DNA of 64,000 nucleotides. It comes from an uncultured Gammaproteobacteria bacterium (GTDB taxonomy: Bacteria; Patescibacteriota; Microgenomatia; UBA10105; UBA927). The stretch spans positions 98,435 to 162,434 of the forward strand of contig CAZGOA010000001.1 in assembly GCA_964527425.1 (NCBI GenBank), read 5' to 3'. Made by a program: the position numbers and the translations under genes. Below the pieces are notes generated by a model, which was not told the origin of the DNA, made no database searches, and saw only the letters and a list, made by a program, of their open reading frames with translations. Shown one piece after another: positions 24,574-54,862 of this stretch. Positions within the stretch are counted from its first letter, which is position 1, and each line of letters begins with the position of its first letter.

Positions 24574-24647
24574 TGATGCATTATACCACTAGGTTCAATT
24601 TGATGAGCTCCAGACAACAAATTGTATTTTCATAGTCATATATAGAA

Positions 24648-25910: not shown

Positions 25911-25912
25911 AA

Positions 25913-29121: not shown

Positions 29122-29142
29122 AATCGTAATATATAACCTATA

Positions 29143-29171
29143 ATTATATACTATAAATAGTTTCTCGGCAA
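29143..29171 (-). promoter_or_regulatory. Putative sigma70-type promoter for the operon starting at 29121
   Basis: Minus-strand reading gives TTGCCG, then 17 bp, then TATAAT (perfect -10 at 29143..29148; -35 at 29166..29171). It sits in a 153-bp intergenic gap where base composition changes. Confidence 0.3.
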
Positions 29172-29274
29172 TGCTTACTTACTGCTTAAAAAGTCTAATT
29201 TGCATTTATTACTCTATCTTTAAGCTAATAATTTTCAGTTTAGAAAGTGTACCATGACTAATTTAGTATATTGA

Positions 29275-30570
29275 TTATGCATTTGTATGATTTAGTGAAG
29301 ATTTTGGTGAGCTAAATACTGTTCTTAATACTTCTATGTTGTTTTTTGCTTTATGGAGATATGCAGGGAGTGATTTTTTTAGTACTTCTCTATATAACTT
29401 TCTCCCATTTACTAAATTGTTAAAAGTATAGTCTAACGTATCTAGTGACACTTGATTTATTGGAATAACCCACTCACTTAAATTTAAATCTTTCATAATT
29501 CCAATAGTTTTATTCTCATAGGCTATTGCAATTGTAGGGACATACCCGGTTAGTGCAAGAATAGCTGAATGCATACGAGTAGCAACTAAATAATTTGCAG
29601 ATTCATATAGAGATTTAATTTCATATGTCGATAGTTCTTCTTTAATAACAATAACTTTGTCTGGTGATTTTAGCTTATTAATTAATGTATTAATTACTTT
29701 GCTGTCATCATCATTATGTAAAGTAGATGTACATTGAGGTACTAATACTACCTGGATATTGTTATTTAACAAAAGCTTTTCGATAAATAACTGTATAGAT
29801 TTTAAATAATATGAATAAATTGGTTCTTTTAAACGCTTAACAGTAATCATTACAACAGTTTTTTTTGTATTTATTCCAAATCTATTAAATAACATTAAAG
29901 ATGAAAATTTTATAGTGGATTTAAAAAGAAATGCCGCATCTACAGATCGATAAATAATATTTGGTTTAACTCCGATTTTTTTTAGATACGACATAGATAT
30001 ATCTTCTCTGACTAGAATTGCTTGAGTAAAATTTAAGATATATGATACATACCATTCTTGTAATTTTGATTTAAATGAACCAATAGATTGTGAGTATAAA
30101 CATACAGGTTTTCTGAGTATTTTTGCAAGTAAAAATACATGTAGATGAAGTATGAGAGTTATATAGGTATTTATCGATTTATCACCTACTAAATATCCTC
30201 CACCTGTTCCAATAACTAAATTAGATTTTTTTAACTTTAATAAAAATGTATTTAATTCTGCTGAAAAAAGAAAATAAATATTTATACCAATAAACTTATT
30301 AAGCAAAGCCCAAATGAGTGTGTTTGAGATTAGATAGCATGTTTTTATAAATCTTAAAATACTATTACTATGCTTATAAATCGCTTCATAAAAAATAGAA
30401 GTCAATAATAAGACTTCTTTATCTATTTTAGATTCTTCTAAACCTGCCATTGAAGATATCGATACATTTACATTTGGATATACTTTCCTTAACTGTGCGA
30501 TTAGACTGATGAGGATTGCAGCGTCTCCTTTATTTTTATTAGAATAATAGTTAGTAATTAATACATCCAT
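29275..30570 (-). CDS. Polysaccharide pyruvyl transferase (CsaB/WcaK family)
   Basis: 431 aa. The N-terminal LITNYYSNKNKGDAAILISL matches the GxxNxGD motif of PS_pyruv_trans. The C-terminal VATRMHSAILALTGYVPTIAIAYENK matches the conserved RxH...G.P...Y..K block. Confidence 0.6.
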   Translation of the reverse strand: MDVLITNYYSNKNKGDAAILISLIAQLRKVYPNVNVSISSMAGLEESKIDKEVLLLTSIFYEAIYKHSNSILRFIKTCYLISNTLIWALLNKFIGINIYFLFSAELNTFLLKLKKSNLVIGTGGGYLVGDKSINTYITLILHLHVFLLAKILRKPVCLYSQSIGSFKSKLQEWYVSYILNFTQAILVREDISMSYLKKIGVKPNIIYRSVDAAFLFKSTIKFSSLMLFNRFGINTKKTVVMITVKRLKEPIYSYYLKSIQLFIEKLLLNNNIQVVLVPQCTSTLHNDDDSKVINTLINKLKSPDKVIVIKEELSTYEIKSLYESANYLVATRMHSAILALTGYVPTIAIAYENKTIGIMKDLNLSEWVIPINQVSLDTLDYTFNNLVNGRKLYREVLKKSLPAYLHKAKNNIEVLRTVFSSPKSSLNHTNA

Positions 30571-30571
30571 A

Positions 30572-31669
30572 TTAATTACCTTTCACAAACTGGAGATAGG
30601 AAGAATATTGTTCTGTTACCGTATCCCAAGAAAATTGACTTGAAATCCCCATACAATTTCTTTTCAATACGTCTCTTAATTTTTTGTTTTTAATTATTTC
30701 TACAATATTATGGCCCAGTTTAAATTCATCAAAGGGCTTTGTCTTTATAGAGACTTTATTACTAAGCCACTTAAGGCCATCAATATCAAAACAAATTATT
30801 GGCGTAGCTGAAACGATAGATTCTATAGCTGTTAGACTTTGTCCTTCAAATCTAGAGGGCATTAGTAAACAGATTGCATTACTCAGCAATTGTTGTTTAT
30901 TCTTTCCTTTTACATAGCCAAGTAATTTTACATTTGATTCTAAATCATATTTTTTTACTAGTTTTTTTATTATTTCGGTATCTTGCTCTGAACCTGTTCC
31001 AGCTATATACAACATCGTTTTACATTTTTTTACTACATTAGAAAAAGCAGGAATCAACAAATCTAATCCTTTTTGTGCTATTTCCAATCTACCCATAAAT
31101 AAAACATAATTTTCTTTAGACTTTGAAATCTTTTTTATGGGTACTAGATCCGTTGCATTGGAAATTACTTTTACATTACATGACTTATTTATTTTCAGTA
31201 TTTTTTCTTTCTGGTTTTCTGTAAGTGCAATTATGTATTTATATTGTCTTATACCTAGCCTCTCAATCCATGTAAATGGTAGTTTATATTGTTTTGATTT
31301 CTGTTCTGCATCTAGAAAATGAGTCACTCCAATTACCGGTTTTTTTGTAAAAATAGGTAAAAAGGAAGTGGTAAAAGGCGGTGTAAAACTCTCAATCCAA
31401 ATATCATGTTTTTCAATTAATACATAAAAAGGAAGTATTACAGAATAAATTAATTGTCCAATTTTAGGTCCAAATATGCTTGTAGAAATGAATTTATACT
31501 TAACACCATTTATTATTCTTGATGATTGAACACCCGGATAAGAACCAGTAATTACTATAACATCGTTATTTTTGCTTAACACAGAAGAAACTTTATTCAT
31601 AACAACAGCACCGCCACCACTATAATATGGGTTTTTTATACTGTCGTATGTAGAAATTAATAGTTTCAT
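30572..31669 (-). CDS. Glycosyltransferase family 4 (GT-B, RfaB-like)
   Basis: 365 aa. FMGRLEIAQKGLDLLIPAF...LYIAGTGSE...LLMPSRFEGQSLTAIESIVSATPII is the GT4 E-x7-E region. Confidence 0.75.
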   Translation of the reverse strand: MKLLISTYDSIKNPYYSGGGAVVMNKVSSVLSKNNDVIVITGSYPGVQSSRIINGVKYKFISTSIFGPKIGQLIYSVILPFYVLIEKHDIWIESFTPPFTTSFLPIFTKKPVIGVTHFLDAEQKSKQYKLPFTWIERLGIRQYKYIIALTENQKEKILKINKSCNVKVISNATDLVPIKKISKSKENYVLFMGRLEIAQKGLDLLIPAFSNVVKKCKTMLYIAGTGSEQDTEIIKKLVKKYDLESNVKLLGYVKGKNKQQLLSNAICLLMPSRFEGQSLTAIESIVSATPIICFDIDGLKWLSNKVSIKTKPFDEFKLGHNIVEIIKNKKLRDVLKRNCMGISSQFSWDTVTEQYSSYLQFVKGN

Positions 31670-31671
31670 GT

Positions 31672-33510
31672 TTAAAATAAACTTTTTTTTGTAGAATTAA
31701 TAACTTGCCACTTAAGAGGAAAATTATTATATTCTTTTCTAGCTTTATACTTTGAATATACTCCGACAATAAAACTTAAGAGACTGGGTAATGGCTTTTT
31801 TATTAATTCAATAAGCTGTGAAGTATACAAATAAAAAATTGGTAATTCATATTCTTCATTAACCAAATTGCCAAAATTTTTCTTTAATAAATGTTTATTC
31901 ATATTGTTACGAGAATTCCATTGAATATACTCAAATAACGTGCTTGGGAAAATGAAATAACCAACAGCTGCACGAACATGCTTATATGTGAATCCGAACT
32001 TTATACAGGATAGATATAAATAACTATCAACATTACCTAATTCTTCTTTGCTTACTATTCCAGATTTTTTTATAAAATCGTTAGATAATACTAGAATTTT
32101 GCCATCGCAAGTATATTTATTATCACCATTGCGATAGAGATATCTTGCTCGCTCATATGCATTAAATGAAGCAAGACACGCTCTTTGAATAAAATTTTTT
32201 GTACCTAAAGGCTGAGGATTTCCACTTACAAGTCCTACATTTGATTCTGATCTAAAAGGTTTTATAAGTTTGTTTAAAAAATTTTTGTCTTTTATTAGGA
32301 CGTCATCATTGATCAATACAAAAACATCAGACTTATTATTTATAATTAATTGTTTAAAAGCTCCCTGAAAACCTAAGCGTTCTTTACCTTCGATAATTCT
32401 TAATTTATTTTTTTTAATTTTTCTCAAAAATTCAAGCGTTGAGTCAGTACTTTTATCACAATAAACAATAATTGATTTATATTTAAATAAAGTAGTTGAC
32501 TGGTTTATAAGAGAATGGACTAAATTTTCTATATTGTCTTGATTATTATAAGTTGGTATTCCAACAGTTAGAGAGAGCTTTTTAGTACTTTTTCTTTCAA
32601 TACTTACTACAGGTTTTTTGGTGGAACTAGATATATGCCAAATCCCATCATTATTTCTATTTATTCTCTTATAAAACTTTGTGTAAATTAAAATAATTAT
32701 ATAGCTTATTAAATGAATAGGTTTTAAAAAAGAATATTTTACTAACATTTTACCTATTGGGACTAGTGGCATATTATATTCCTTTTCAATATCGTTTCCG
32801 AAAAACTTTTTCATTCCATTAACAGAACTCTTAAATCTACTACTTTGTTTTAGATGATCTAAAAAATTATCTGGAAGTCTGTAATATATTTTCGTCCCAG
32901 TAAAATATTCAACATCCATTTTTTTTCTTTTTGCGAAAAAATAAATGTATGCATCAGTTCCAACAGTATTTGGTATATTTATTTGTTTATATAGATTTTT
33001 TTTCATCACTAGAAGCGCCCCTCTAAACGCGTAAACATTTTTACCTTTTCTAAAATTTCTTATGACGAATTCTTTAATTTCTACACTTGTAGAAAGCATC
33101 TTTTCAAAAAAACTGTTAGGTTTGACTGGCATTGCTTGAACTGATAACAATGAAATACTATTGTTATAGTTCAATTTATCAATAATTTTAAAGAGCGTAT
33201 CCTTCCTAAGAAAACAATCAGCATCAACTAGAATAACAAAGTCAGATTTACTTTTTTTAAATATTTGATTCAGTCTATAATATTTTCCTTTTCTTTCTTT
33301 TCCGTTAATTAAATGAATTTTATTGCTTTTGAATGATTTGATTATGTTAACTGTTTTATCAGTGCATCCATCTGATGCAATAATAATCTTATCAAGTACA
33401 TAATTACCAGTTTTTTGATTTAAAATGGCTGAAATAATATTTCCAATATTGTTCTCTTCGTTATATGCAGGTATGCCAATTGATAATGTAACTCTATTTA
33501 TTTTTTTCAT
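31672..33510 (-). CDS. Tandem double-GT2-domain glycosyltransferase
   Basis: 612 aa. Domain 1 is LSIGIPAYNEENNIGNII...IIASDGCTDKT...VDADCF. Domain 2 is LTVGIPTYNNQDNIENLV...YCDKSTDST...INDDVL. That gives two complete GT-A folds in one polypeptide. Confidence 0.75.
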   Translation of the reverse strand: MKKINRVTLSIGIPAYNEENNIGNIISAILNQKTGNYVLDKIIIASDGCTDKTVNIIKSFKSNKIHLINGKERKGKYYRLNQIFKKSKSDFVILVDADCFLRKDTLFKIIDKLNYNNSISLLSVQAMPVKPNSFFEKMLSTSVEIKEFVIRNFRKGKNVYAFRGALLVMKKNLYKQINIPNTVGTDAYIYFFAKRKKMDVEYFTGTKIYYRLPDNFLDHLKQSSRFKSSVNGMKKFFGNDIEKEYNMPLVPIGKMLVKYSFLKPIHLISYIIILIYTKFYKRINRNNDGIWHISSSTKKPVVSIERKSTKKLSLTVGIPTYNNQDNIENLVHSLINQSTTLFKYKSIIVYCDKSTDSTLEFLRKIKKNKLRIIEGKERLGFQGAFKQLIINNKSDVFVLINDDVLIKDKNFLNKLIKPFRSESNVGLVSGNPQPLGTKNFIQRACLASFNAYERARYLYRNGDNKYTCDGKILVLSNDFIKKSGIVSKEELGNVDSYLYLSCIKFGFTYKHVRAAVGYFIFPSTLFEYIQWNSRNNMNKHLLKKNFGNLVNEEYELPIFYLYTSQLIELIKKPLPSLLSFIVGVYSKYKARKEYNNFPLKWQVINSTKKSLF

Positions 33511-34675
33511 ATTTATTCATCCAATTATTTAATGACTCAGCTACACTTCGCCATGTGTGATGTTTTGTGTACTCAATGTTATTTTTCTGAATTACATCCA
33601 TTTCTTTTTTATTCGATGTATTCATTACATACTTAATTTTGTCTGCAAGGGTTTTGCTATCGTTGGTATCTACTAAATATCCATTCACTGCATCTTTCAC
33701 TAAATATTTTAGTGCTGTATTGTTTGCTACAATTACTACTTTTCCTTGACTCATTGCTTCATGTACTACATTGCAAAAACTTTCCCATCGTGCCATATGC
33801 ACCATCATTTCACTGTTGCGAATAAGATAAAATTTATCATCCCCTCTTACTACACCTACGAAGTGAACTCTATTAGTTAATCTTAAAGAGGCAATCATTC
33901 TTTTTAATTTTTCTAAATAATAATAATCACCTATGGGACCGGCTATTACATAATGAATATGTTGAGGAAGTGCTGCTAAAGCTTTTATTGTTGTTTCGTA
34001 ATTTTTAATGGTATAAATTCTTCCAATTTGGATGATATATGGTTTCCAGGAAGCAACATCTTTTATTAACTTATTGTTTACGATACTATCTTTTTCAATA
34101 TATCCTTCATCTTCTATACCATTAGGAATAGTTATAACGTTAGATTTACGTACACCATGTTTAATAATTTCATGTCTTTCCCATTCAGAAACTGCTCTCA
34201 CACTATTTACTGTTGAATTAATCAATACTGTGCCAACTGTATAGTGGTATATCTTCTTAAACAACTTGGTTATTGGTGAAAAAATTTCCCAGTCTGGAGT
34301 AAATCCACCATGAGGAATTAGAATCAGTTTGGGTGTGGGTAAATGAAATAATCTTCTTATTCCAACATATGCCATAAGAAATGCATGAGGAACAATATTA
34401 AAATTATGAAGTGCAACAATATCAGCACCACCCCAGGAAATACTTGGCCAAAAACCATACCACTTCCACAAATAGCGTTTAATTGAAAGGTTTCTTAATT
34501 GTTCTTTTCTTTTTAGAATATTTATCTCAGTTAAAGTATTTGTTGATGTATGTATTACAACATTCCAATTTTTTTCTGCTAATACACTATATGTTTCTAA
34601 CATATTTGTTTCTATGCCTGCTGCCACAGGATAAAAATATTTAACTATAGCATGTACTGTTTTTTTGCTACGCAT
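33494..34675 (-). CDS. Glycosyltransferase family 4
   Basis: 393 aa. FVGVVRGDDKFYLIRNSEMMVHMARWESFCNVVHEAMSQGKVVIV is the GT4 EX7E-type motif. Confidence 0.75.
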   Translation of the reverse strand: MRSKKTVHAIVKYFYPVAAGIETNMLETYSVLAEKNWNVVIHTSTNTLTEINILKRKEQLRNLSIKRYLWKWYGFWPSISWGGADIVALHNFNIVPHAFLMAYVGIRRLFHLPTPKLILIPHGGFTPDWEIFSPITKLFKKIYHYTVGTVLINSTVNSVRAVSEWERHEIIKHGVRKSNVITIPNGIEDEGYIEKDSIVNNKLIKDVASWKPYIIQIGRIYTIKNYETTIKALAALPQHIHYVIAGPIGDYYYLEKLKRMIASLRLTNRVHFVGVVRGDDKFYLIRNSEMMVHMARWESFCNVVHEAMSQGKVVIVANNTALKYLVKDAVNGYLVDTNDSKTLADKIKYVMNTSNKKEMDVIQKNNIEYTKHHTWRSVAESLNNWMNKYEKNK

Positions 34676-35468
34676 ATATTTCTCCTACAATTTTCTTGAT
34701 TGTCCCTCTTACGGCTGTAACTGTTGGAGATGCAAGAACTTTGAATTCTTTAAGTGTGTGACTTCCATCTACACCAATTCTTGGGATTGCAAATTTATTT
34801 GTGTTATTCGTGATGGAGCCATCATCCATAGAAAAAGCTACTTTATATCCTGATTTCGCAACTAACTCAAGAATCTGGTTGTTATACATACCCTTTGGAT
34901 AACAGAAAGCACTGACAGGTTTCCCAATGATTTTTTCAAGTTGTACTTTTGCGCCAATAATTTCTTTATTTAATGATTCTTTATTGCACTGTGTTAATAC
35001 TGGATGTGTTGCTGAATGACAGCCTATATCCCATAGTTCTCCTAATGCTTTTAACTTTTGAGGTGACAGCAAGGTAAGGTTTGTATTTAATACTGATCTA
35101 TTTGCGTTATTAGGATCTGATAATACAAATACCAATGGTTTAATACCTAATTTATTAAGTAAAGGTTTTGTAGAATATATATTTTCATATCCATCATCAA
35201 ACGTAATAAGAAAAGATTTTTCTTTTAATTCTTTTTTCCCAGTAACATATTCATATATATCTTTATATGAAATAGGATTACCCCAATGTACTAATACTTT
35301 CATCTGTTGCTCAAATGATTTTAAAGAAACTGAATAGCGCCAGTTGTCATTAGAAATACTGTGATAACACAAAACAGCAATTCTTGCTTGTCTATTTAAC
35401 ACTGAATCAATAAATGATGCTCCCTGATACACTGTATTACGAATAATATCTATTGGTTTTGCGTTCAT
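34668..35468 (-). CDS. Polysaccharide deacetylase (NodB/CE4 family)
   Basis: 266 aa. RIAVLCYHSIS...ITFDDGYENIY (TFDDG motif)...LVFVLSD...GCHSATHP (H-x-x-x-H-like). These are canonical CE4 motifs. Confidence 0.75.
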   Translation of the reverse strand: MNAKPIDIIRNTVYQGASFIDSVLNRQARIAVLCYHSISNDNWRYSVSLKSFEQQMKVLVHWGNPISYKDIYEYVTGKKELKEKSFLITFDDGYENIYSTKPLLNKLGIKPLVFVLSDPNNANRSVLNTNLTLLSPQKLKALGELWDIGCHSATHPVLTQCNKESLNKEIIGAKVQLEKIIGKPVSAFCYPKGMYNNQILELVAKSGYKVAFSMDDGSITNNTNKFAIPRIGVDGSHTLKEFKVLASPTVTAVRGTIKKIVGEIYA

Positions 35469-36391
35469 ATGTTTTTAGTGCTGACAGCACTCCAAGTATC
35501 TACCTGTTTTTTTATATTCACGGTTACTATCCGAAGCCATGAAAAAATAAATATATACAAGAATGTTTCTAGAGGATGTGTAATTATCAGCATACCTGCT
35601 CTAAAGGCAGCTTTAATTACCGTAATTATTGAAATATTGAATTCTTTGTTAACTAAATCAGAATCAAACACAGTAGTCATTAATTGCTTTGCTTCTGCAT
35701 ATCGAATACTTTGTTTTGTATGATCACTCATAGTACTAGGTAAACGATAAATTACTGACGCATCTACTACATACGAAAAACGCATTCTCCTTGAAATACA
35801 TGAAAAATATGAATACATATCTTCACCTTCATTCATTTCAAATCTAAATTGTGAATACAGTTTTTTTGAAAAGGCTCTGATAGGTCCGTGACAGTGATAC
35901 ACATTACTTCCCTCATTATGAGTTGCAAAAAGAATTGCTTTTAATTTCATGCTCACACTTAAAATATTTTCTAATACTGTTCTTGGTTGCGACTCAAGAA
36001 TTGCACCAGAAGTAAGATCTGCTTGGCGTTTCTTTACAGGTAAAACAATTTTTTCTATCGTTTTTTTGTCAATAATACGAACATCTCCATCAAGTAACAC
36101 GAGTGCATCTGTTGAACTCATTGAAAACAATTCATTTTGTCTAATAGCTTTTCCTAATCTTATTGATCGTTCAACTATATGTATTCTTGGATCTTTAACT
36201 GCTTTTGCTTCTTTTACTGTATTATCTGTACTCCCGTCAGAAATTATTAAAATAGATCTTATGTCTACTGAATCTAATTCTTGATTAAGGATATCTTGTA
36301 TAAGAAGTCTAATAGACTTAGCTTCATTGTAGGCAGGTATTCCAATCGTAACAGTAAATTTTCTCATACTTTTTTTATTGCCTTTACACAA
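35465..36391 (-). CDS. Glycosyltransferase family 2
   Basis: 308 aa. FTVTIGIPAYNEAKSIRLLIQDILNQ...IISDGSTDNTV...LLDGDV. Confidence 0.8.
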   Translation of the reverse strand: MCKGNKKSMRKFTVTIGIPAYNEAKSIRLLIQDILNQELDSVDIRSILIISDGSTDNTVKEAKAVKDPRIHIVERSIRLGKAIRQNELFSMSSTDALVLLDGDVRIIDKKTIEKIVLPVKKRQADLTSGAILESQPRTVLENILSVSMKLKAILFATHNEGSNVYHCHGPIRAFSKKLYSQFRFEMNEGEDMYSYFSCISRRMRFSYVVDASVIYRLPSTMSDHTKQSIRYAEAKQLMTTVFDSDLVNKEFNISIITVIKAAFRAGMLIITHPLETFLYIFIFSWLRIVTVNIKKQVDTWSAVSTKNI

Positions 36392-37068
36392 GTAACACAG
36401 GGAAAATTTGGATCATTAAAATCTAATTCTTCTTTCGTAAGTTCTTCTTGACTCATTCCTACCCAAAAACATTGTCCGCTATATACATTCCCAAAAGTCT
36501 GAATAGTAACATTTTCATTCTTAAATATTTTTTCGAATAATATTTTTGCACCACCTGGCATAATTCTCCAGTTACCAGAGTTTCCTTCAAAAATAGGAGC
36601 AAAGCAGGCGTTCGTTACTAACGCTACTCCACCGGGTTTTAATATTCTATGAATTTCTTTTACGGCTGCAGGTAAATCATTAATTAGACCCAATACATGA
36701 GTTAAAATAATTGTGTCAAATGTATTATCTTTAATATCTACTAAACTTTGTAAATCGCCGTATATCGTAGCTTTTTTATTATCACGATTAATGTCAAGAA
36801 TTTCTCTTTTTGTTACGTGTTCATTACCGAACTGTTTGGTGTATCGATCGTCTCCAATTTCAAGACAAACACCTTTAATAACATTTTTGTGTTTTCGTAT
36901 GAATGACTCAATCCAATATCGATCAATAGGAGTCCCTCTATCGTATCCAAATTTTGTACTTAAAGGTTTTAATTTTTTGGTAACTAAGGGGTATTTATTA
37001 GCTGGATTGATTCTTAATAAAATAACTGCGCGAATGTTAGAAAGTAATATTAATAACTTGTCTTTCAT
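36364..37068 (-). CDS. Class I SAM-dependent methyltransferase
   Basis: 234 aa. VCLEIGDDRY is motif I (E/DxGxG-like), and ILTHVLGLINDLPAAVKEIHRILKPGGVALVT is motif II/III of Methyltransf_11/12 type. Overlaps both neighbours. Confidence 0.7.
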   Translation of the reverse strand: MKDKLLILLSNIRAVILLRINPANKYPLVTKKLKPLSTKFGYDRGTPIDRYWIESFIRKHKNVIKGVCLEIGDDRYTKQFGNEHVTKREILDINRDNKKATIYGDLQSLVDIKDNTFDTIILTHVLGLINDLPAAVKEIHRILKPGGVALVTNACFAPIFEGNSGNWRIMPGGAKILFEKIFKNENVTIQTFGNVYSGQCFWVGMSQEELTKEELDFNDPNFPCVTCVKAIKKV

Positions 37069-38936
37069 AATGAAACTCCTTTTGTGCTAAAGGATTGAAA
37101 GGCACCTAATTGTGATCCAATATCTAATACTGACTGATATCTCAATCTACTTTTGGGATGTGAATTAGTCATCAAATTTTGTAGTGAACAGTTAATCATA
37201 AGACTGGCAATTGGTAGTTGTAAGTTTCTTTTATAACTCTTGGCTAATAATGATTTGAGCAACATTGAAGCCACAGTCAGATTTGTTTTTCGGCTTGATA
37301 TTGATGCAATTACATCATAGTGAGGATAGGTTATTCTCATTTGTTCACAATCAATAATGCCAATATATCCTTTTCCTAAAAATATATTTTCACCATGTAA
37401 ATCCCCATGGGTAAGTACATATTCTTTTTCATTGAGCAATGAAGGAACACCACGCAGCAACAATCCAATTACCCGAATAAACAAAAAGATTTTCTTAGGA
37501 CTCTTTTTGATTAAAACAACTATTACCAATGGCAAGAACAAAAGAAAATGTTTTAGCGTTCTTTGTCCAATAATATATTTTTCTTCCTGTGTTAGATGGT
37601 TGGTTAATTCCTGTAGAAAATCAATTACAGTCTTTACACTTGTTAACTGTGCTTTGGGACTACTAAATGATAGTGTTTCTCTGCCTTCAATATATGAACG
37701 CATTAAGATAAGTCTATTTTGTTGTTCATTATAAGAAATAAATGACGGCAACAATACTTTGCTATTTTTTAATGAACTTGTAACACGTCTAATAGCTTTT
37801 GTTAACACTTGATATACAGCAATTTCATGTCGCAAATTAATATAAGAGAGTGTTTTTCGTTTGCCTTCCCATAGTTTAACAATAACTCGTTCATGTTTTT
37901 TATTCTGGTATACACCTACTGATATATTTGTTTGTTTGTTTGATGAAAGTACATCAACTAGTGCATAACCAGATATTCGTTTTGGTAATCTTGATAGGTG
38001 TTCTTGATTAATTCCGAAGATGACTTCCCTTAGCGCAATACAAATTTTTTTCATAATAGATACCTGCGGTATATACTTGTATTCAGTCGGAATTTTATCT
38101 ATCTCCAATAAAAACTTTATAACACTCTTTCTCATTCTGATTTTTAGATTTCTATCGGTTAAAAAAAGTGTTGCAATAAATATTCCTAAAGAAATATGAT
38201 AATTCGATAGAGTTTTATATTTTAATAAAACCTTTCTCATTTTTGCGTCATCCCATCGGTTAATTAAGAGCATAAGGAAATCCCAATCTTTTACAGTAAA
38301 AGCGGCATATGGCCAATCAACAATTACTTCTTTTTTTCCATGCTTTAGTATGTTTTTGAGGTGTATATCTCTGTGGGCAAAGTATGAAGCTTGTTCTTGA
38401 AATAATTGAATTGCACCATTAATAAATATCTTTAAACTGTGAAAGTAAAGAAAAAATAATTCTGGAAAAGCTATAAGTGCTTTGATTAAGATATATGGAT
38501 AACTCAATACTAATAACCAACCTGGCCTTGAAGGTATTACAGAATTTTTTTTATTTTCTAACTTTTTTGTTAAAGAAGAAATATTTGTAAGCATTCGTAA
38601 TACAGTAGTTATTTTAGTTTTTTGTGAAAAATGAATAAGTTCTTTTGAAGATATATATGGAAACAAAACGATAAATCTCCATTTTTGTTTAACCACACCT
38701 ACAACAGGTAACACAAAGGAGAATTTGTGTTTTTCTAGCAGCTGTAAAATTGCAACCTCTCGTTCTAGCAGTAATCTTTTTTTAGATCGCTGACTTCCAG
38801 AATACCCTTTAGCAAAAAATTTTTTACCATGTTTATCTTTATAAATTGCATAGACATATGCTGTTTGATTTATATATGAAAACCGATTCACAAAATAAGA
38901 ATTATCAATTTTTTCAGGGAATATTGGATCAGTCAT
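37065..38936 (-). CDS. Tandem protein-kinase-like / aminoglycoside-phosphotransferase-like (PKL-fold) double-domain protein
   Basis: 623 aa. Module 1 has FFAKGY (beta3 Lys), HRDIHLKNIL (catalytic loop) and VIVDWPY (DFG-equivalent). Module 2 has VIVKLWEGKRK, HGDLHGENIF (Brenner motif) and IIDCEQM. Two kinase-like catalytic cores in tandem. Confidence 0.5.
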   Translation of the reverse strand: MTDPIFPEKIDNSYFVNRFSYINQTAYVYAIYKDKHGKKFFAKGYSGSQRSKKRLLLEREVAILQLLEKHKFSFVLPVVGVVKQKWRFIVLFPYISSKELIHFSQKTKITTVLRMLTNISSLTKKLENKKNSVIPSRPGWLLVLSYPYILIKALIAFPELFFLYFHSLKIFINGAIQLFQEQASYFAHRDIHLKNILKHGKKEVIVDWPYAAFTVKDWDFLMLLINRWDDAKMRKVLLKYKTLSNYHISLGIFIATLFLTDRNLKIRMRKSVIKFLLEIDKIPTEYKYIPQVSIMKKICIALREVIFGINQEHLSRLPKRISGYALVDVLSSNKQTNISVGVYQNKKHERVIVKLWEGKRKTLSYINLRHEIAVYQVLTKAIRRVTSSLKNSKVLLPSFISYNEQQNRLILMRSYIEGRETLSFSSPKAQLTSVKTVIDFLQELTNHLTQEEKYIIGQRTLKHFLLFLPLVIVVLIKKSPKKIFLFIRVIGLLLRGVPSLLNEKEYVLTHGDLHGENIFLGKGYIGIIDCEQMRITYPHYDVIASISSRKTNLTVASMLLKSLLAKSYKRNLQLPIASLMINCSLQNLMTNSHPKSRLRYQSVLDIGSQLGAFQSFSTKGVSL

Positions 38937-41466
38937 TCCATCCTCCTTGAATTACCATTGATCTCTTTCTCTTTTTTTCTAAAGCTAGTTCGTATGTTGT
39001 TCTCATAACATTTATTAACGTATCTACACGTTCATTCCAGTCAAAAGTTGAAGCCCATTGTTTTGCTTCTTTAGACATACGATTGCGCTCTTTCGAATTT
39101 CGAATGAGTTTCATTATTGCTCTGGCAAAAGCATTTACATTTCCAGAAGATACAAGCATTCCTGTTTTACCTTGCACAATTGAATCTTTTAACCCGTTTA
39201 CATTACTGCCAATGACCGGTGTACCAAATGAATTTGCTTCAATTACGGTTATTCCCCACCCTTCTATTGAAGATGGATGGACAGCAACCCAAGCTGAAGA
39301 AAACAATTCTGATTTTTTGTCTTCTGGGATATGACCTAAAAACTCAACATATTCCTGAATGTTTAATTTTTTTGCAAGTTGTTTTAGATGTCTGCCATAT
39401 TCTCCGTGTCCTGCTATTACTAGCCGTGAAGTGGGAATTAATGGATGAACCTTGGCAAATGCTTTTATAATCACATCTACTCTTTTATATGCTTTTAATC
39501 TTCCAAAATAGAGAATGCTTGGAAATTGAGACTTTTCAGAAATTAGTTGTTCTGAAGGGTTTATGATCCCTGGCTCAATAACAGTTACTCTTTTAGATTC
39601 AGCAAATTTATGCTTCACAATTTCTTTTTTTGATGACTGAGAAACAGTTACTAATAAAGAATCTTTATAGATCCAGGGCATTAGCTTCTTCTCAAGAAAC
39701 ATTGCAACATATGAAAAAGGAAACCATAAATGTTTTTGAAATACGTCTTGATGAACATGATGCACAACTAATACAACAGGAATTCTTGCATAAATGGGAG
39801 AAAAGAAAGGAATCCCATTTTCACAGTCAATAATCATGTCAAATTGACCTCGAAAAGCAAATAAATAATATATAGATGCCCATATATATACGGTATAAAA
39901 ACCACCTCTTCGAACCATTTGCACCCCATCAATTACTTGATTACGTACTGATCGTTGATCATTTCCACAAAACATCGTTACTTTATATCCTCGATCTACT
40001 AACCGTTTTGCAATTTCATGCAAATAAACTTCTGACCCTCCTGCCCACACATGTTTTGTATCTCTCCAGTTTAAAATTAATACTGATGGTTTAGTCTTTT
40101 CTTCTCTAGTTAAGGGGGTTAAAAAGCCCTCAACAGCATCTCGTAAGTTTCGTAATACAGTATCTCCAAATTGTTTATATTTATGTGTAAATATAATTCC
40201 TAATAGATAAAGAATTGCGGTTATTGAAACAACTAAGACAACATCACCCATAGTATTATGTCTAAAACTAATACCAATAAGCATTAGCATTGAAAACAAA
40301 AATCCAACTATAGAAAATAAATGCTGATCTTTTGACTGATAATACGCAACTATCCCGCTAGCAAGTGCAAGACATCCCATCGCAAATGTATACAGACTTG
40401 TATAGGGAGCTACGATCGATAGCAAACCTTCTTTATCCATAAAAAAGAGTGTTGTTTGACTAAATACTCCAAATGTAATCCAGCCAAAGATATTAATTAC
40501 AAATGTAATAATCATTATTGGGAAAATAATGTCTTTATCGTTTCTTCCTTCGCCTTTTCTTTTACTAATTAATGGATTTAAAAATTGAGTAAATAACACC
40601 CCGAGAAAATAAACAATTTTACCTATAAACGACAAGAAAACGTATTGACCTGCTTGTTCAGGAGACAAAAAATGTTTTGCTAATAACACATCGAGGTTTA
40701 AAAAAATAACAGAAGAAAATTTACTTAATAACGAACTAGCTATAAATGTTTTTGACAATGCAGCCTTATTAGATACTTTATTTTTCTTGATTTTTCTTGA
40801 AATACCGAGTGCGATGTACCAACAAAAAAGAAATGAAGTAATTGATGATATTGGAATTGCTATATAAAACCATGCAGATAAACGCATTTCTATAAGGATT
40901 ACCGTAAGCAGTAACTTAACTAGTACTTCTACAATTAATGAAATTGCAATTGCTCTAAATGCTAATACTCCTGATAAGAATCCAGAATCAACTGCAGCAG
41001 TAATACCTATGAGCCATAAAGGTGTTAACAGAATAAAGGGTAATAACCTATCTGTTTGAAAAAATGCTGCTAAAAAAGGTATAGATACTAGCCATACTAT
41101 ACTTATTGCAATCGCTGGAGTAATACTTTTTCTTCGTAATTGTCTCCAAAAATCTACTGGAGGAAACCCATGTTTGCCTAATTGATATGCAGTTGCATGA
41201 ACAATTGATCGTGAATAGGCTGATAATGGAATTTGAGCGATATTTAACAAACTACCTATTAATCCAATTACTCCAAATTCTGCTACTGAAATAACATCTG
41301 ATCGAACAAGGTAAACGCTATATAGCAAATTACAGATGTTTGCAAACATTGAAGCAAAAACAAGAAATATGCCGCTTTTCCAACTTTTTGAAGATTTTAT
41401 ATTTAGAATTAATGATTGAAGTAATACGATCATACCACCTATTGCGTAACTTGAAGTATGTCGCAA
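38929..41466 (-). CDS. Fusion of a Wzx-like MOP flippase membrane domain and a C-terminal GT4 glycosyltransferase
   Basis: 845 aa. The N-terminal ~430 aa is polytopic with the Wzx-type start FASMFANICNLLYSVYLVRSDVISVAEFGVIGLIGSLLNIAQIPLSAYSRSIVHATA. The C-terminal ~400 aa is GT4 (SVLILNWRDTKHVWAGGSEVY...HPSSIEGWGITVIEANSFGTPVIGSNVNGLKD). Confidence 0.6.
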   Translation of the reverse strand: MRHTSSYAIGGMIVLLQSLILNIKSSKSWKSGIFLVFASMFANICNLLYSVYLVRSDVISVAEFGVIGLIGSLLNIAQIPLSAYSRSIVHATAYQLGKHGFPPVDFWRQLRRKSITPAIAISIVWLVSIPFLAAFFQTDRLLPFILLTPLWLIGITAAVDSGFLSGVLAFRAIAISLIVEVLVKLLLTVILIEMRLSAWFYIAIPISSITSFLFCWYIALGISRKIKKNKVSNKAALSKTFIASSLLSKFSSVIFLNLDVLLAKHFLSPEQAGQYVFLSFIGKIVYFLGVLFTQFLNPLISKRKGEGRNDKDIIFPIMIITFVINIFGWITFGVFSQTTLFFMDKEGLLSIVAPYTSLYTFAMGCLALASGIVAYYQSKDQHLFSIVGFLFSMLMLIGISFRHNTMGDVVLVVSITAILYLLGIIFTHKYKQFGDTVLRNLRDAVEGFLTPLTREEKTKPSVLILNWRDTKHVWAGGSEVYLHEIAKRLVDRGYKVTMFCGNDQRSVRNQVIDGVQMVRRGGFYTVYIWASIYYLFAFRGQFDMIIDCENGIPFFSPIYARIPVVLVVHHVHQDVFQKHLWFPFSYVAMFLEKKLMPWIYKDSLLVTVSQSSKKEIVKHKFAESKRVTVIEPGIINPSEQLISEKSQFPSILYFGRLKAYKRVDVIIKAFAKVHPLIPTSRLVIAGHGEYGRHLKQLAKKLNIQEYVEFLGHIPEDKKSELFSSAWVAVHPSSIEGWGITVIEANSFGTPVIGSNVNGLKDSIVQGKTGMLVSSGNVNAFARAIMKLIRNSKERNRMSKEAKQWASTFDWNERVDTLINVMRTTYELALEKKRKRSMVIQGGWND

Positions 41467-43745
41467 TATGATGGCAGGTGAGATATATTTTTGTTATTTT
41501 TATTTGTAAAGGTATATTGTTCTAATACATGTTTAAATCCATCTGACTGATTCTCTTTTTTAAATTTATGTGTTTTTTTAATACGTTGTTTATGCTGTAA
41601 ATGAAATCCATGAACTGTTTTGCTCCAATAAAATGGGCGGTATATCATTTCAAAGAGAGATCGCCATGCAGCAATACTCATAGCTAGCCAATATATAGGT
41701 GTTAATAATGCATATTTAATGAGTTCATAGTATCCACGCTTTACACAACCAATCATATATATATACATATACATAAAATTTCCGAATACTAGAGAAAACA
41801 CTCCTAAATACAAAACAGGACCAGGGTAAAATGACTCAATAGTAGGACCTATAACGGATCTAAAAGCAAAATAAGAAATTGTAATTAACCACATAAATGG
41901 ATTAATTAACATTGATAATACTTTTCCGCCAACTATTAAATGAAAGAGAATTCCATCAGGTTGTGTTACGGTACTTGTAAACTTATGAGAATCTCTAACA
42001 TGCACTAAATAGGTTTGAATATATCCTTTTATCCAACGACTTCGCTGACCATACCAGTTCCAGGCTTTACTCGTTGCTTCTTCCATAGTTGTAGAATCGA
42101 TTACTGCAGTTTTCAATTTTCGCTTTGATAAACGCATTCCCAAATCACAATCTTCTGTTACATTAAATGCATCCCAGCCTTTTAGATCATGTAAATCACT
42201 AACTCTAAAATGATTTGAAGTCCCTCCTAAAGGGATTGGAGCGCCTATCGATTGAAGACCTGGCAATATTAAATCAAACCACAACGAATATTCGGCAGTG
42301 AACATGCGTGTAATAATATTTTGCTGTGGATTATAAAAATTTAGTTTTGCTTGCAAACATACAACATCACTTGAAACTTTATTAAAGGTTATTACTGATT
42401 TTTTTAACTGTAATGGATCTGGAATATCTTCTGCATCATATATCACTGCATAGGTTCCTTTTGCGCGTGATAGACCATAATTAAGAGCTTTTGGTTTAGT
42501 TTTTGGTTTACTATCAGGAACGAGTAATACTTCCATGTATTTTGGAATTGTCATTTTTTTTATATTCTCGATTGATTCAGAATCATCTTCCTCTAATAAC
42601 AGTAGTACTTGAAGTTTATCTTTAGGATAATTCATTTGACTCATTGCCCTAATAAATTGAGGCAGAACTCTCCATTCTTTATAGAGAGGACAAAAAATTG
42701 TATACGTAGGCCAAATATTATCTGGTTGTGAAATTATTTCTTGATCTTTAATATGATACTCATGCTGTGTAGAAAAACTTCGTGATACAAGAAATGCTTG
42801 AAAAAGCACATCTGCAAAATAAAAAAAAGTGAGTACTGCAATCAATATTACAAGTGTTGAGTGCCAAGAAATAATAAACCCGATCGTAAGAAGGAGTATA
42901 AGACCTATTAGTATTACTCCTTGATTAAATGTTAAACGCAGAAACGCTGATTCGGTAAAATCTAACTCTGTATGATGAATATATTCTTTTCCTTTGTGTG
43001 TAAATCCTTTCCCATATTTCTTTTGCTTTTCGGGATGAAAAGGAATTATGTGATTACCTAATAACTTAATGAGTATGGCATCAATAGCCATTGATATACT
43101 TGCCTTCAGTATATTAATCTTTGGTTTACCTGAAAAACGCTTTTCAAATAATATTGGATGAGACGTTAATATATACCCTGCATTTTTTGCTCTATATAAA
43201 AAATCTAAATCAAATTTCCATCCCTTACCTTGAGGTTTAATATGTTCAAGTACACTTTTCCTAAATACTTTTAATCCAGATTGAGCATCAAGCGAAATAT
43301 TAAGTAACTTTTTTACAAAAAAGATACGATACGATTTACTAATGATCGAACGAAGAATTGTAGTATTTCTCTCTTTGCGTTCTGCTATTACTATATCGAC
43401 TTGATCATGTATGAGTGTTTTGACCATTGCAGGAATAGCTTCAGGGGGATATTGTAAGTCAGCATCAATCATTGCAATTATCCCGTTGTTCACCTTAGAA
43501 AAACCGATAAGTAACGATTCTGCCTTGCCACTGTTTCCTAAGTTATCAATAATTTTTATCGGATATGTTTTTGCAAGTCGTTGTATTATAACTTTCGTAT
43601 TATCTGTTGAATGGTCGTTAACGAATATTATTTCATAACTCAGATTAGCTTTTTTGCATGAATTATCAATACGAACGACTAGTGGTTCGATGTTATTTTC
43701 TTCATTAAACGCAGGAATGACAATAGAAATTAAAGGTTGAGACAT
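41439..43745 (-). CDS. Dual GT2 protein: N-terminal DPM1-like GT2 plus a membrane-embedded processive (cellulose/chitin-synthase-like) GT2 with a QxxRW motif
   Basis: 768 aa. Domain 1 is ISIVIPAFNEENNIEPLV...FVNDHSTDNT...IDADLQYPP. TM helices follow. Domain 2 has YDAEDIP (DxD), VTEDCDLG (TED) and GQRSRWIKGY (QxxRW), and ends in C-terminal TM helices. Confidence 0.65.
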   Translation of the reverse strand: MSQPLISIVIPAFNEENNIEPLVVRIDNSCKKANLSYEIIFVNDHSTDNTKVIIQRLAKTYPIKIIDNLGNSGKAESLLIGFSKVNNGIIAMIDADLQYPPEAIPAMVKTLIHDQVDIVIAERKERNTTILRSIISKSYRIFFVKKLLNISLDAQSGLKVFRKSVLEHIKPQGKGWKFDLDFLYRAKNAGYILTSHPILFEKRFSGKPKINILKASISMAIDAILIKLLGNHIIPFHPEKQKKYGKGFTHKGKEYIHHTELDFTESAFLRLTFNQGVILIGLILLLTIGFIISWHSTLVILIAVLTFFYFADVLFQAFLVSRSFSTQHEYHIKDQEIISQPDNIWPTYTIFCPLYKEWRVLPQFIRAMSQMNYPKDKLQVLLLLEEDDSESIENIKKMTIPKYMEVLLVPDSKPKTKPKALNYGLSRAKGTYAVIYDAEDIPDPLQLKKSVITFNKVSSDVVCLQAKLNFYNPQQNIITRMFTAEYSLWFDLILPGLQSIGAPIPLGGTSNHFRVSDLHDLKGWDAFNVTEDCDLGMRLSKRKLKTAVIDSTTMEEATSKAWNWYGQRSRWIKGYIQTYLVHVRDSHKFTSTVTQPDGILFHLIVGGKVLSMLINPFMWLITISYFAFRSVIGPTIESFYPGPVLYLGVFSLVFGNFMYMYIYMIGCVKRGYYELIKYALLTPIYWLAMSIAAWRSLFEMIYRPFYWSKTVHGFHLQHKQRIKKTHKFKKENQSDGFKHVLEQYTFTNKNNKNISHLPSYCDILQVTQ

Positions 43746-43918
43746 GGAGAAATTTTTATCTGTATAATATTTTTTATAGGTTTATAATATACCAATTTGT
43801 ACGTGTGATGTCAATCACGATATAGGAATTAGTATCAATAAAATAAACAAAATTAAGTAAGTAAATTGGAGAATTTAGACAATAATACTTATTATTAGTC
43901 ACAACCTTTGTAAATCTT

Positions 43919-44800
43919 TTACACCTGGAAAGATAGTCTTCTTCGGGAAGAGATATGTTGTGGTTTTGTTGCTTTATTCGCTTTTAATAGTGCGAATTCG
44001 AATAGGTGAATTGATCTAAGGAGAGAATACACCACTACAGATAAAGGATTTGCAATAAATTCCAGGAATAACCGCGTGTAAATATAATACCTTCTTGAAT
44101 GATGTTCTAGTTTACGAATATCTTTATATTGCTGATAAAACTGAGTAAATGAACAATCTGGACGAATATATCCGAAAAGGCTGGTCGTATACTTTATTTT
44201 ACTCTGTGTTTTTTTAATTCGTTTAAACATAAACATTGATGAGACAAGCCTATTTAAAGAAAGTTTATGTACAAAATTGCTGTTTTTTATTGAATAAACG
44301 CCACTAACCATACATAAGGGAATTTGTGTAATATCATAGTATTTTCCAATTACTTTAAAGGCACTTAATCTGCCTGCGACCAAACTTCCGAGTATTGTAG
44401 TTGGATCTTCTGCTTCACATCTTCCTAATACCATGCCTATATCTTTTCTCTCAAATAAGGGATGAACCAATGAGTTTAAGCCTTCTGTGCTAATTCGGCT
44501 TAAAGAAACAGGCATTATTGCGAAAGCATCTGTTTTATATAACCATTTTGAGGCTGAACATTCTTTAAGACTTAATCGTGTGAACTTATCTGGTTGAGAA
44601 TATGGTCGATCATACACCCTGACTTTGGCTTCTGGTGAACGTGAAGATACGTTAATAATACGGTTGACGATAACGTCAGGAGACTGCTCCAGCGCTTGCT
44701 TAATCATCATTAAATGACGATTTCGCAAGTACCCACCGTAAAAAACTAGCGTTACCTGCTTTTTTTCACAAAAAACAGTACTTATTAGATTAATATCCAT
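43919..44800 (-). CDS. Hypothetical basic protein at the edge of the glycan island
   Basis: 293 aa, Lys/Arg-rich in the C-terminal third. No motif recognised. It is separated from the upstream operon by a 173-bp AT-rich gap. Confidence 0.3.
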   Translation of the reverse strand: MDINLISTVFCEKKQVTLVFYGGYLRNRHLMMIKQALEQSPDVIVNRIINVSSRSPEAKVRVYDRPYSQPDKFTRLSLKECSASKWLYKTDAFAIMPVSLSRISTEGLNSLVHPLFERKDIGMVLGRCEAEDPTTILGSLVAGRLSAFKVIGKYYDITQIPLCMVSGVYSIKNSNFVHKLSLNRLVSSMFMFKRIKKTQSKIKYTTSLFGYIRPDCSFTQFYQQYKDIRKLEHHSRRYYIYTRLFLEFIANPLSVVVYSLLRSIHLFEFALLKANKATKPQHISSRRRLSFQV

Positions 44801-44888
44801 AAGCAGATGACTACTATATCACAATATTGCAGTACGTCAAATTTATACGAAGAGTGACATATGTTAAAAAATAAGGGATACTATCGTT

Positions 44889-45218
44889 ATGCTTACTCAG
44901 AAACATTGTGTTCCATGTGAGGGTGGAACTGCCCCGCTAAAAGAAGACGAGATACAAACGTTTTTACCTCAAACACCAGGGTGGACGAGTATTAATAATA
45001 GTATGGCTATCGAACGACAGTTTCGCTTCAAAAACTTTAAAGAAGCCCTAGAATTTGTGAATATTGTGGGAGAATTAGCCGAAAGTGAAGGGCATCACCC
45101 AGATATTAACCTTCAAAACTGGAATACAGTAACGTTAACTCTTTCTACTCATGCCATTGGAGGGTTATCAGAGAATGATTTTATTCTTGCAGCAAAGGTT
45201 AATGAGATTCTGGAATAA
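44889..45218 (+). CDS. Pterin-4-alpha-carbinolamine dehydratase (PCD/DCoH)
   Basis: 109 aa. CVPCEGGTAPL...GWT...FKNFKEALEFVNIVGELAESEGHHPDI...W is the canonical PCD signature, including E-x-x-x-HHP. Confidence 0.85.
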   Translation: MLTQKHCVPCEGGTAPLKEDEIQTFLPQTPGWTSINNSMAIERQFRFKNFKEALEFVNIVGELAESEGHHPDINLQNWNTVTLTLSTHAIGGLSENDFILAAKVNEILE

Positions 45219-45222
45219 TTTA

Positions 45223-45426
45223 TCAACGTCGAAAATTACTTTTTAAATCTTCATAATCCTCTAAAATTGTTGCTAAATCTCTCACAGGAGTACGAGTATG
45301 AGGATTAGCTTCCAAAGTACGAGGTTCTGGTGATGGTACATAGAATGACTCATAAACATCTACAATTGATTGTCCGTTAGGCACCCCAAAACCCGGCAAA
45401 CTTTTTTGTTCTATTGTATTAGACAT
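45223..45426 (-). CDS. Small hypothetical protein
   Basis: 67 aa, acidic and Pro-rich, with no motif. It is convergent with the PCD gene. Confidence 0.25.
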   Translation of the reverse strand: MSNTIEQKSLPGFGVPNGQSIVDVYESFYVPSPEPRTLEANPHTRTPVRDLATILEDYEDLKSNFRR

Positions 45427-45459
45427 TTAAGAAATAATACTACTATAAGTCATTCTTTG

Positions 45460-46599: not shown

Positions 46600-46646
46600 G
46601 CGATACTATTATTCCTTTTTCTCTCAAGTTCGTAAAGCATTTATCT

Positions 46647-47453: not shown

Positions 47454-47532
47454 TACTATAAGTGTAATAATGAAAGATTAAAAAAATATTAAATAATTAT
47501 TCTTTCTATGAGAAAGGACGCAGAGTTTTGAT

Positions 47533-48792: not shown

Positions 48793-48793
48793 C

Positions 48794-49690: not shown

Positions 49691-49712
49691 AAGAATGTTG
49701 ATTGCTGACTAA

Positions 49713-50896: not shown

Positions 50897-50913
50897 ATAC
50901 CCATTATGCGTAA

Positions 50914-54850: not shown

Positions 54851-54862
54851 ACCACTACAATA

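Follow-up and report, generated by a model that had tools for sequence, protein, structure and literature searches.

A predicted ten-gene envelope-glycan operon of a Patescibacteria genome is AT-rich mainly through the composition of its proteins

The stretch of 64,000 nucleotides analysed here (contig CAZGOA010000001.1, hereafter the window) lies, judging from the nearest GTDB genomes, in a Gottesmanbacteria-like genome of the Patescibacteria (candidate phyla radiation, CPR) and contains, at 29275-43745 on the minus strand, ten glycan genes that we designate C1-C10, C10 being the first gene of the predicted operon and C1 the last (Table 1). Pfam confirmed all ten gene calls and, with them, the gene list of a first-pass annotation made from the DNA letters: a pyruvyl transferase, glycosyltransferases of family 4 (GT4), a tandem glycosyltransferase of family 2 (GT2), a carbohydrate esterase family 4 (CE4) deacetylase, a single GT2, a methyltransferase, a kinase, a Wzx-GT4 fusion and a dual GT2. 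The genes are spaced by -17 to +5 bp and lie between the two longest intergenic gaps of the window, which are AT-rich, as that annotation had noted, and among the most AT-rich of all (GC 0.242 for the 153-bp gap and 0.225 for the 173-bp gap, compared to a mean of 0.296 over all gaps). In the upstream gap a promoter-like site at 43814-43786, consisting of TTGACA, a 17-nt spacer and a TG-extended TATATT, matches 11 of 12 consensus positions in addition to the TG extension and precedes the start codon of C10 by about 40 nt. The downstream (left) gap has a weaker promoter-like site (29171-29143) ahead of the gene for a 541-aa membrane protein and showed no significant structure (z=-0.41), and no canonical terminator was found in either bounding gap. 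As predicted from these sequence features, 29275-43745 is a single ten-gene minus-strand operon with its own promoter-like site.

Table 1. Genes of the predicted operon and adjoining features, in window coordinates.
Feature	Position	Strand	Remarks
Segment between TsaB and C10	43919..45426	.	species-specific, normal GC, outside the operon
Upstream gap	43746..43918	-	173 bp, GC 0.225, holds the promoter-like site
C10, dual GT2, 768 aa, first gene	41439..43745	-	Pfam, structure matches, motifs
C9, Wzx-like domain with 10 transmembrane helices fused to GT4, 834 aa	38929..41433	-	gene-caller start; open reading frame extends to 41466
C8, tandem APH-like kinase, 623 aa	37065..38936	-	Pfam
C7, S-adenosylmethionine-dependent methyltransferase (Methyltransf_11)	36364..37068	-	Pfam
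C6, GT2, 300 aa by gene callers	35465..36367	-	Pfam
C5, CE4 polysaccharide deacetylase	34668..35468	-	Pfam
C4, GT4	33494..34675	-	Pfam; coincides with the internal GC change-point at ~33.6 kb
C3, tandem GT2 fusion, 612 aa	31672..33510	-	Pfam; GC minimum (0.262)
C2, GT4	30572..31669	-	Pfam
C1, polysaccharide pyruvyl transferase (PF04230, PS_pyruv_trans), last gene	29275..30570	-	Pfam
Downstream gap	29122..29274	-	153 bp, GC 0.242
Downstream partners: 541-aa and 528-aa polytopic membrane proteins, 420-aa secreted protein	24648..29121	-	conserved in relatives

The N-terminal domain of C10 resembles the polyprenyl-phosphate-sugar synthases DPMS (dolichyl-phosphate mannose synthase), ArnC and GtrB: residues 5-224 match the structures of DPMS (5mlz, E=1.6e-24), ArnC (E~1e-16) and GtrB (sll0501, E=1.3e-16), and the domain carries DAD94 and is followed by transmembrane (TM) helices. 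The C-terminal domain (residues 346-628) matches Glyco_tranf_2_3 and Glyco_trans_2_3, contains the motifs DCD532, TED530 and QRSRW567, with TM helices at about 267-310 and 599-665, and thus displays the hallmarks of membrane-embedded processive GT2 enzymes (D, DxD, TED, QxxRW); the match to BcsA structures is weak (E=1e-4). C10 has more than 3800 homologs, the best 120 of which share 52-63% identity with it and are nearly all of comparable length; those among these 120 whose source is named belong to Patescibacteria lineages, except for one with a Methylomirabilota label. In C9, the N-terminal region, which resembles Wzx (MOP-family) flippases, is predicted to form 10 TM helices, and although this region goes unscored by Pfam in the window protein, the Levybacteria ortholog matches Polysacc_synt_3 and Polysacc_synt. 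The two halves of the C8 kinase align with each other (E=2e-18) and are a true tandem, each half with an HxDxHxxN catalytic loop (residues 188 and 510). A HMMER search among 1.84 billion representatives returned 550 C8 homologs; in the best 150 matches about eight clusters were of tandem length and most others were single-domain proteins of ~320 aa. An apparent rarity of C8 in a word-indexed search, which had found two proteins, was discarded as a sensitivity artefact, since tblastn recovered homologs in three relatives (R1-R3, below) and HMMER the 550. No relative of this kinase was found in the PDB by sequence search, and a JGI metagenome scan with the tandem kinase gave 570 pattern matches, none of which was confirmed.

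The closest named families of C5 are PgaB (78 bits, cut-off 322) and IcaB (70 bits, cut-off 248), both below the equivalog level. The halves of C3 align at E=4e-37, so that C3 also is a true tandem. C1 covers the whole of PF04230 (115.7 bits against a cut-off of 25.3, residues 13-353, profile positions 1-280 of 280) and falls under the equivalog cut-offs of CsaB (119.6 against 213) and WcaK (112 against 399); a sequence search of the PDB gave no match for it. Beyond the downstream gap, the 528-aa protein shares 32% identity (E=4e-77) with a protein annotated as PMT_2 that is encoded directly after a dual GT2 in a Saccharimonadales contig and is, as judged from this alignment, probably related to the PMT_2 glycosyltransferases of the GT-C fold. 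That contig (L056, 9001-16749) encodes two paralogous dual GT2s, which share 55% and 53% identity with C10 and are each directly followed by a homolog of the 528-aa protein, one of them the PMT_2-annotated protein, which suggests that a dual GT2 and a GT-C enzyme form a recurring functional pair. The 541-aa protein has no Pfam match and no PDB match, either by sequence or by a profile of four sequences; its profile aligns to the PMT_2 proteins of the window with an hhalign probability of 43%, and a single-sequence AlphaFold2 model (pLDDT 43.7) was too poor for fold comparison.

The operon is embedded in a large cell-envelope glycan neighbourhood. Window positions 291-19488 form a glycan locus too, with GT2s, a Wzx, PMT_2-type GT-C proteins, GT87, GT2-GtrA, UXS, UGDH and RmlDBA, and proteins of the surface and envelope are encoded at 19760-29121. 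There is no sharp change of gene content at 29122, and the shift that the first-pass annotation saw at the operon is overstated, since the left part of the window is already a glycan locus. On the other side, 43919-45426 contains a gene without recognised family (unk293), a pterin-4a dehydratase gene on the plus strand and a 67-aa open reading frame, none of which has a counterpart in any relative. We considered unk293 as a member of the operon and rejected it, as its GC is normal, the promoter gap separates it from the ten genes and no relative has a counterpart. Judging from the relative R3, in which TsaB adjoins C10 directly, it is 43919-45426 that appears to be the actual species-specific insertion, at the TsaB-C10 junction.

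We compared base composition and codon usage along the window, taking its other genes as the host reference. The overall GC of the window is 33.8%, and the block from 29122 to 44800, for which a lower GC had been claimed by eye, is indeed AT-richer (0.304) than the stretches to its left (1-29121, 0.344) and right (44801-64000, 0.356); gene by gene, the ten operon genes average 0.302 and the other 45 genes 0.354 (Mann-Whitney p=4e-6). Binary segmentation in 200-bp bins placed change-points at ~12.8, 27.4, 33.6 and 44.4 kb, delimiting segments with mean GC of, from left to right, 0.331, 0.359, 0.283 (27.4-33.6 kb), 0.315 (33.6-44.4 kb) and 0.357. The trough is therefore two-tiered, with a tier of 0.283 to the left of 33.6 kb and one of 0.315 to the right, and its borders differ from those first proposed: it begins one gene further left because it includes the gene for the 541-aa membrane protein (27496-29121), and the gene at 43919-44800 has a normal GC of 0.347. 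Runs of seven or more A/T reach 3.4 per kb at 27.4-33.6 kb and 1.8 per kb at 33.6-43.9 kb compared to 0.9-1.2 per kb elsewhere, so the long A/T runs of the annotation are two to three times denser than in the flanks, and their density in the trough exceeds the shuffled expectation. The described richness of the proteins in Lys, Asn, Ile, Tyr and Phe was likewise borne out, with a fraction of these residues of 0.30-0.44 in the operon proteins (0.44 in C3) and mostly 0.18-0.36 in the others.

The deficit originates mainly in these proteins. Codon positions 1 and 2 carry 78% of the coding GC deficit, and when the expected GC of each gene was computed from its own amino-acid sequence and the codon preferences of the genes outside the operon, amino-acid composition plus host codon usage predicted 81% of the deficit, leaving a residual of -0.009 that equals one standard deviation of the normal gene-to-gene scatter. 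Synonymous codon usage gave a chi2/df of ~1.5 in each of five blocks, the operon being no outlier. Three relatives, introduced below, have the same kind of trough: measured against the respective flanks, the deficit is -0.050 in the window, -0.024 in R1, -0.047 in R2 and -0.034 in R3, and in the window, R1 and R2 GC is lowest in the genes that come after C4. The left-hand block of GT2 and GT-C genes (1-13238) is AT-richer as well, with a GC of 0.331-0.334 compared to 0.359 for housekeeping genes; glycan genes run AT-rich generally in this genome. We conclude that the AT-richness comes mainly from proteins rich in Lys, Asn, Ile, Tyr and Phe, whose genes use codons in the ordinary way of the host, and that low GC is here the familiar trait of polysaccharide loci and probably not a mark of recent import.

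Next, we examined the locus in other lineages, identified through homolog searches with the operon proteins. Lineages whose proteins are only 26-68% identical to those of the window share the gene order of the operon, and where contigs extend to the flanks, TsaE-TsaB stand on one side and the 541-aa, 528-aa and 420-aa proteins on the other. In R1 (L047 and L053, a 170-kb contig), TsaE-TsaB are followed by genes for proteins of 205 and 320 aa and a helix-turn-helix (HTH) protein and then by C10(61%)-C9(54)-C8(33)-C7(48)-C6(44)-C5(48)-C4(53), an extra methyltransferase, two separate GT2 genes corresponding to the halves of C3 (39% and 43%), and C2(50)-C1(38); a gap of 212 bp is kept at the position of the 153-bp gap of the window, and beyond it lie the 541-aa(53%)-528-aa(66)-420-aa(59) proteins and, further on, surf275(54). 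R2 (L054) has the same backbone, with a methyltransferase-GT4 fusion replacing C3 and C2 and an extra GT2 after the pyruvyl transferase. In R3 (L048-50), TsaE-TsaB directly adjoin C10(63%)-C9(54)-C8(39), the contig ending inside the kinase gene, and the flank proteins share 78% (PrfB), 86% (FtsE), 72% (FtsX) and 72% (PcsB) identity with those of the window. R4 (L046) spans C9-C4 at 54-68% identity. On a 954-kb contig (L057) the order is HTH-C10(57%)-C9(49)-single-domain kinase-methyltransferase(54)-GT2(39)-CE4(45)-GT4(54)-GT2-pyruvyl transferase, and Levybacteria retain C10-C9, followed by other tailoring genes. This leading pair, C10-C9, is widely conserved among Patescibacteria. C4 is the last gene whose order is kept in every lineage whose contig extends that far; differences between lineages begin after it, coinciding with the GC step at 33.6 kb. 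The kinase is a tandem in the window, R1, R2 and R4 and a single-domain protein (353 aa) in L057. The loci of fusion or fission are 31672-33510 and 37065-38936 in the window, 7058-8901 in L053, 8157-10004 in L054 and 13794-14855 in L057. As far as these gene orders tell, the locus is variable on the scale of genera or families, between lineages rather than strains, with the variation concentrated in its 3' third.

Between strains, no such variation was seen. Exact-protein look-ups retrieved within-species contigs from at least 12 Sequence Read Archive (SRA) runs, 94-100% identical in nucleotide sequence and covering parts of the block; in all of these runs the contigs covering the block have the same gene order and the same neighbours, and among them no contig joins the flanks without the operon. 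Along a 301-kb contig of one second strain (SRR7051042_52174), the operon diverges by 0.31-0.55% and most housekeeping DNA by 0-0.3%. The strain-divergence hot-spots of this comparison, at 15-19 kb (UGDH, RmlD, RmlB; 7-11.5%) and 45-49 kb (TsaB, TsaE, unk268, PcsB-like, FtsX; 4.5-16.6%), look like recombination imports or fast-evolving surface genes; the strain-variable spots thus flank the operon, which is itself among the least divergent stretches, and the proposed strain-variable cassette finds no counterpart in these data. The exact C4 protein occurs on only four contigs (L032-L035), three of them of 2-4 kb, compared to 19 for unk293 and at least 23 for RuvB or YibE/F. Assembly fragmentation in the part of lowest GC, or amino-acid microvariation there, seem to account for this scarcity.

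The explanation that we consider probable is that the operon was inherited vertically at a fixed site, between TsaE-TsaB and the GT-C-like membrane proteins, that its AT-richness is mainly driven by protein composition, and that it specifies a decorated polysaccharide; inheritance at the TsaB site would then predate the split of lineages that now share ~40-60% protein identity. Several observations weigh against this explanation. GC at third codon positions (GC3) is slightly but significantly lower in the operon genes (0.198 compared to 0.229, p=5e-4), and the dinucleotide signature distance is largest at 29.1-33.5 kb (53-62 compared to 14-39), a measure that a short, extremely AT-rich segment such as this one inflates. 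A weak non-host signal may therefore persist in C1-C3, where GC at synonymous third positions (GC3s) is 0.162. The operon of L057 has a GC of 0.478, above that of the sole available flank (0.361), which is itself another glycosyltransferase cluster. Among the window proteins scanned we recognised no initiating phosphoglycosyl transferase of the WbaP/WecA type, there being no match to Bac_transf or Glycos_transf_4, nor any match to a Wzy/O-antigen-ligase family, and the biochemical pathway beyond the domain assignments is a prediction from domain homology and the conserved neighbourhood.

A further observation against it concerns more distant relatives. A scan with FtsX, using one genome per GTDB species, yielded ten syntenic loci at 41-54% identity, several of them labelled Candidatus Gottesmanbacteria or Patescibacteria, from which we take the window to derive from a CPR bacterium of Microgenomates type; the order PrfB-unk165-FtsE-FtsX-PcsB-like is kept in all ten and TsaE in eight, and the operon is absent within 10 kb of the site in every one. 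In L015, the closest GTDB species found with FtsX, TsaB is directly followed by CAP (50% identity) and RmlA (71%), so that about 24 kb of the window (20787-45426) are absent at the equivalent site (13232-17905), namely sortase, fn3 and surface proteins, YibE/F, the secreted and GT-C-like proteins, the operon and unk293; RmlA is followed there by different sugar genes (RmlC-like, DegT, a PIG-V-like GT-C). In genomes further away, TsaB is followed by sortase, subtilases, a matrixin or a giant adhesin. On present data, an ancestral gain is indistinguishable from relocation or loss elsewhere. Five of the loci (L015 and L020-L023; CAYVAR01, CAYGWK01, CAZAPL01, CAZRUW01 and CAYJLJ01) come from public records of metagenome-assembled genomes titled 'uncultured Gammaproteobacteria', labels that appear wrong given the PrfB-FtsEX-PcsB synteny, in most cases including TsaE, and the 41-54% FtsX identity that they share with the window and with named Gottesmanbacteria.

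Among the alternatives, the one that fares best confines exchange to the 3' third: a replaceable module comprising C3-C1, and possibly the gene for the 541-aa protein as well (27.4-33.6 kb), would have been swapped by recombination between lineages, next to a core made of the 5' two-thirds. The change-point at 33.6 kb fits this idea, as do the lowest GC (0.283), the lowest GC3s (0.162) and the largest dinucleotide distance of that part, the lineage differences that cluster there (an extra methyltransferase and split GT2s in R1, a methyltransferase-GT4 fusion and an extra GT2 in R2, a single GT2 in L057) and an identity of the pyruvyl transferase to its relatives of 38-45%, below that of C10, C4 or C2. 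However, R1 and R2 still carry C2, C1 and the 541-aa gene in this order, with identities of 38-53%, divergence between strains is only 0.55%, and fusion, fission and indels in place can explain the differences, so that we regard such a module as possible but somewhat doubtful.

An ancient acquisition, in which the operon or the whole 24-kb segment (20.8-45 kb) was inserted beside TsaB in the common ancestor of the window, R1, R2 and R3 from another AT-rich Patescibacteria lineage and has since ameliorated, appears improbable to us. It would account for the direct TsaB-CAP-RmlA junction of L015, for the unrelated surface genes after TsaB in more distant Gottesmanbacteria, for the small deviation in GC3 and dinucleotides that remains, most marked in C1-C3, and for the C10-C9 modules that Levybacteria and another lineage carry in different surroundings. 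The pattern can, however, be explained just as well by loss or rearrangement in L015 and the other species, and the identities of the operon proteins to R1 and R3 are in the same range as those of genes on both flanks, consistent with co-divergence; moreover, C10 is near-universal in Patescibacteria, and the module is therefore not foreign to the group.

A genomic island of recent origin that varies between strains and brings in a second polysaccharide cassette, along the lines of the horizontally acquired cassette of the first-pass annotation, is very unlikely: lower GC, dense A/T runs, AT-rich bounding gaps, absence from the equivalent site in ten more distant species and the few, short contigs with the exact C4 protein, which hint at assembly breaks, speak for it, but order and context are identical wherever contigs of at least 12 runs cover the block, divergence between strains is only 0.3-0.5%, the operon is syntenic in lineages sharing 26-68% protein identity and has the same flanks there as far as the contigs reach, relatives show the same GC deficit, codon usage is host-like, and neither an integrase nor a tRNA nor direct repeats accompany it. 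The annotation was right that integrases and transposases are missing (no such Pfam domain in any gene scanned across the window); in addition, the 64 kb contain no tRNA gene and no Rfam family at the gathering threshold, and of flanking direct repeats there were none, only short, imperfect AT-rich repeats. It had also stated what would speak against it, namely uniform GC and codon usage or conservation of the block in the same context in all relatives, and this is largely what we found: GC is not uniform, but synonymous usage is host-like, and the block stands in the same context in strains and closer lineages, being absent from the site in the ten distant species.

The other half of the first-pass proposal, that the genes specify a second, pyruvylated, methylated and phosphorylated polysaccharide, remains plausible alongside vertical inheritance at the TsaB site. 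The gene content fits such a polymer, which would also be de-N-acetylated, and the operon has a Wzx-like domain of its own besides the left-hand Wzx. We propose that the C-terminal processive GT2 domain of C10 would polymerise and export a β-linked backbone, probably rich in N-acetylhexosamine, which the CE4 enzyme C5 would partly de-N-acetylate. The cytoplasmic GT4 and GT2 enzymes would build lipid-linked side units that the Wzx-like domain of C9 could flip across the membrane, and the DPMS/GtrB-like N-terminal domain of C10 would make a polyprenyl-phosphate sugar, to be used by the downstream GT-C-type membrane proteins for extracytoplasmic decoration of the polymer. Phosphate, methyl and pyruvate-ketal groups would be added by the tandem kinase, the methyltransferase and the pyruvyl transferase. 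Lineages differ in the genes beyond C4 (the C3/C2 region), which have been fused, split or replaced and which also form the part of lowest GC.

A more speculative extension, to which we give only tentative credence, is that C10-C9 might be the conserved core machine for a near-universal, uncharacterised envelope polymer of Patescibacteria, an analogue of teichoic acids or secondary cell-wall polymers, in which one fused enzyme would couple backbone synthesis to GT-C decoration and the 3' tailoring genes would diversify the surface. If so, the lineage-specific tailoring genes (kinase, methyltransferase, CE4, pyruvyl transferase and extra glycosyltransferases) would give a surface diversity relevant to the host attachment of episymbionts. 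To our knowledge, the envelope chemistry of Patescibacteria is essentially unknown, though central to their episymbiotic lifestyle. A literature search on this operon found no relevant publication, and we apparently deal with a ten-gene envelope-glycan operon whose order is deeply conserved in Patescibacteria and that has no characterised member. It also illustrates how, in an AT-rich genome, a visible GC dip that stems largely from the make-up of the proteins can pass for a horizontally acquired island.

Low GC is known from the polysaccharide gene clusters of many bacteria, among them O-antigen, capsule and exopolysaccharide loci. Like these, the operon consists of co-directional GT2 and GT4 genes with a flippase and tailoring enzymes, has a GC a few points below that of the genome, encodes Lys/Asn/Ile/Tyr/Phe-rich proteins and varies in gene content between lineages at a fixed site. 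Unlike them, it shows no presence/absence or allelic variation between strains, its 5' two-thirds are conserved over very deep divergence, and we recognised neither a Wzy or Wzz nor an initiating phosphoglycosyl transferase in the window. A second likeness is to the synthase-dependent poly-N-acetylglucosamine systems (PgaC/IcaA with PgaB/IcaB), with which the operon shares the processive GT2 hallmarks of the C10 C-terminal domain and a CE4 enzyme whose best matches are PgaB and IcaB; the best NCBIfam match of C10 is PgaC_IcaA, with the best-scoring stretch in the N-terminal GT2 domain (residues 3-127). In contrast to those systems, the synthase is fused to a second GT2, PgaA/PgaD or IcaC/IcaD are missing, eight further glycan genes including the Wzx-like domain belong to the operon, and all scores are far under the equivalog level (109.9 bits for PgaC_IcaA, cut-off 422).

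The pyruvyl transferase C1 differs from CsaB and WcaK in scoring under both equivalog cut-offs and in that no SLH-domain proteins were seen in the window, but resembles them in its full-length PF04230 domain and, like wcaK, in standing at the end of a glycan operon. The last comparison is with three-component extracytoplasmic glycosylation of the Gtr or CsbB-GtcA-YfhO type, which combines a polyprenyl-phosphate-sugar synthase, a flippase and a GT-C transferase. Here a Wzx/MOP-type domain joined to a GT4 takes the place of GtrA as candidate flippase, and the synthase is fused to a processive GT2. The likeness lies in the C10 N-terminal domain, which matches the structures of GtrB (sll0501), ArnC and DPMS, and in the conserved association with a flippase-like domain and with neighbouring, putatively GT-C-type membrane proteins, tentatively assigned as such through the 32% identity of the 528-aa protein to its PMT_2-annotated relative.

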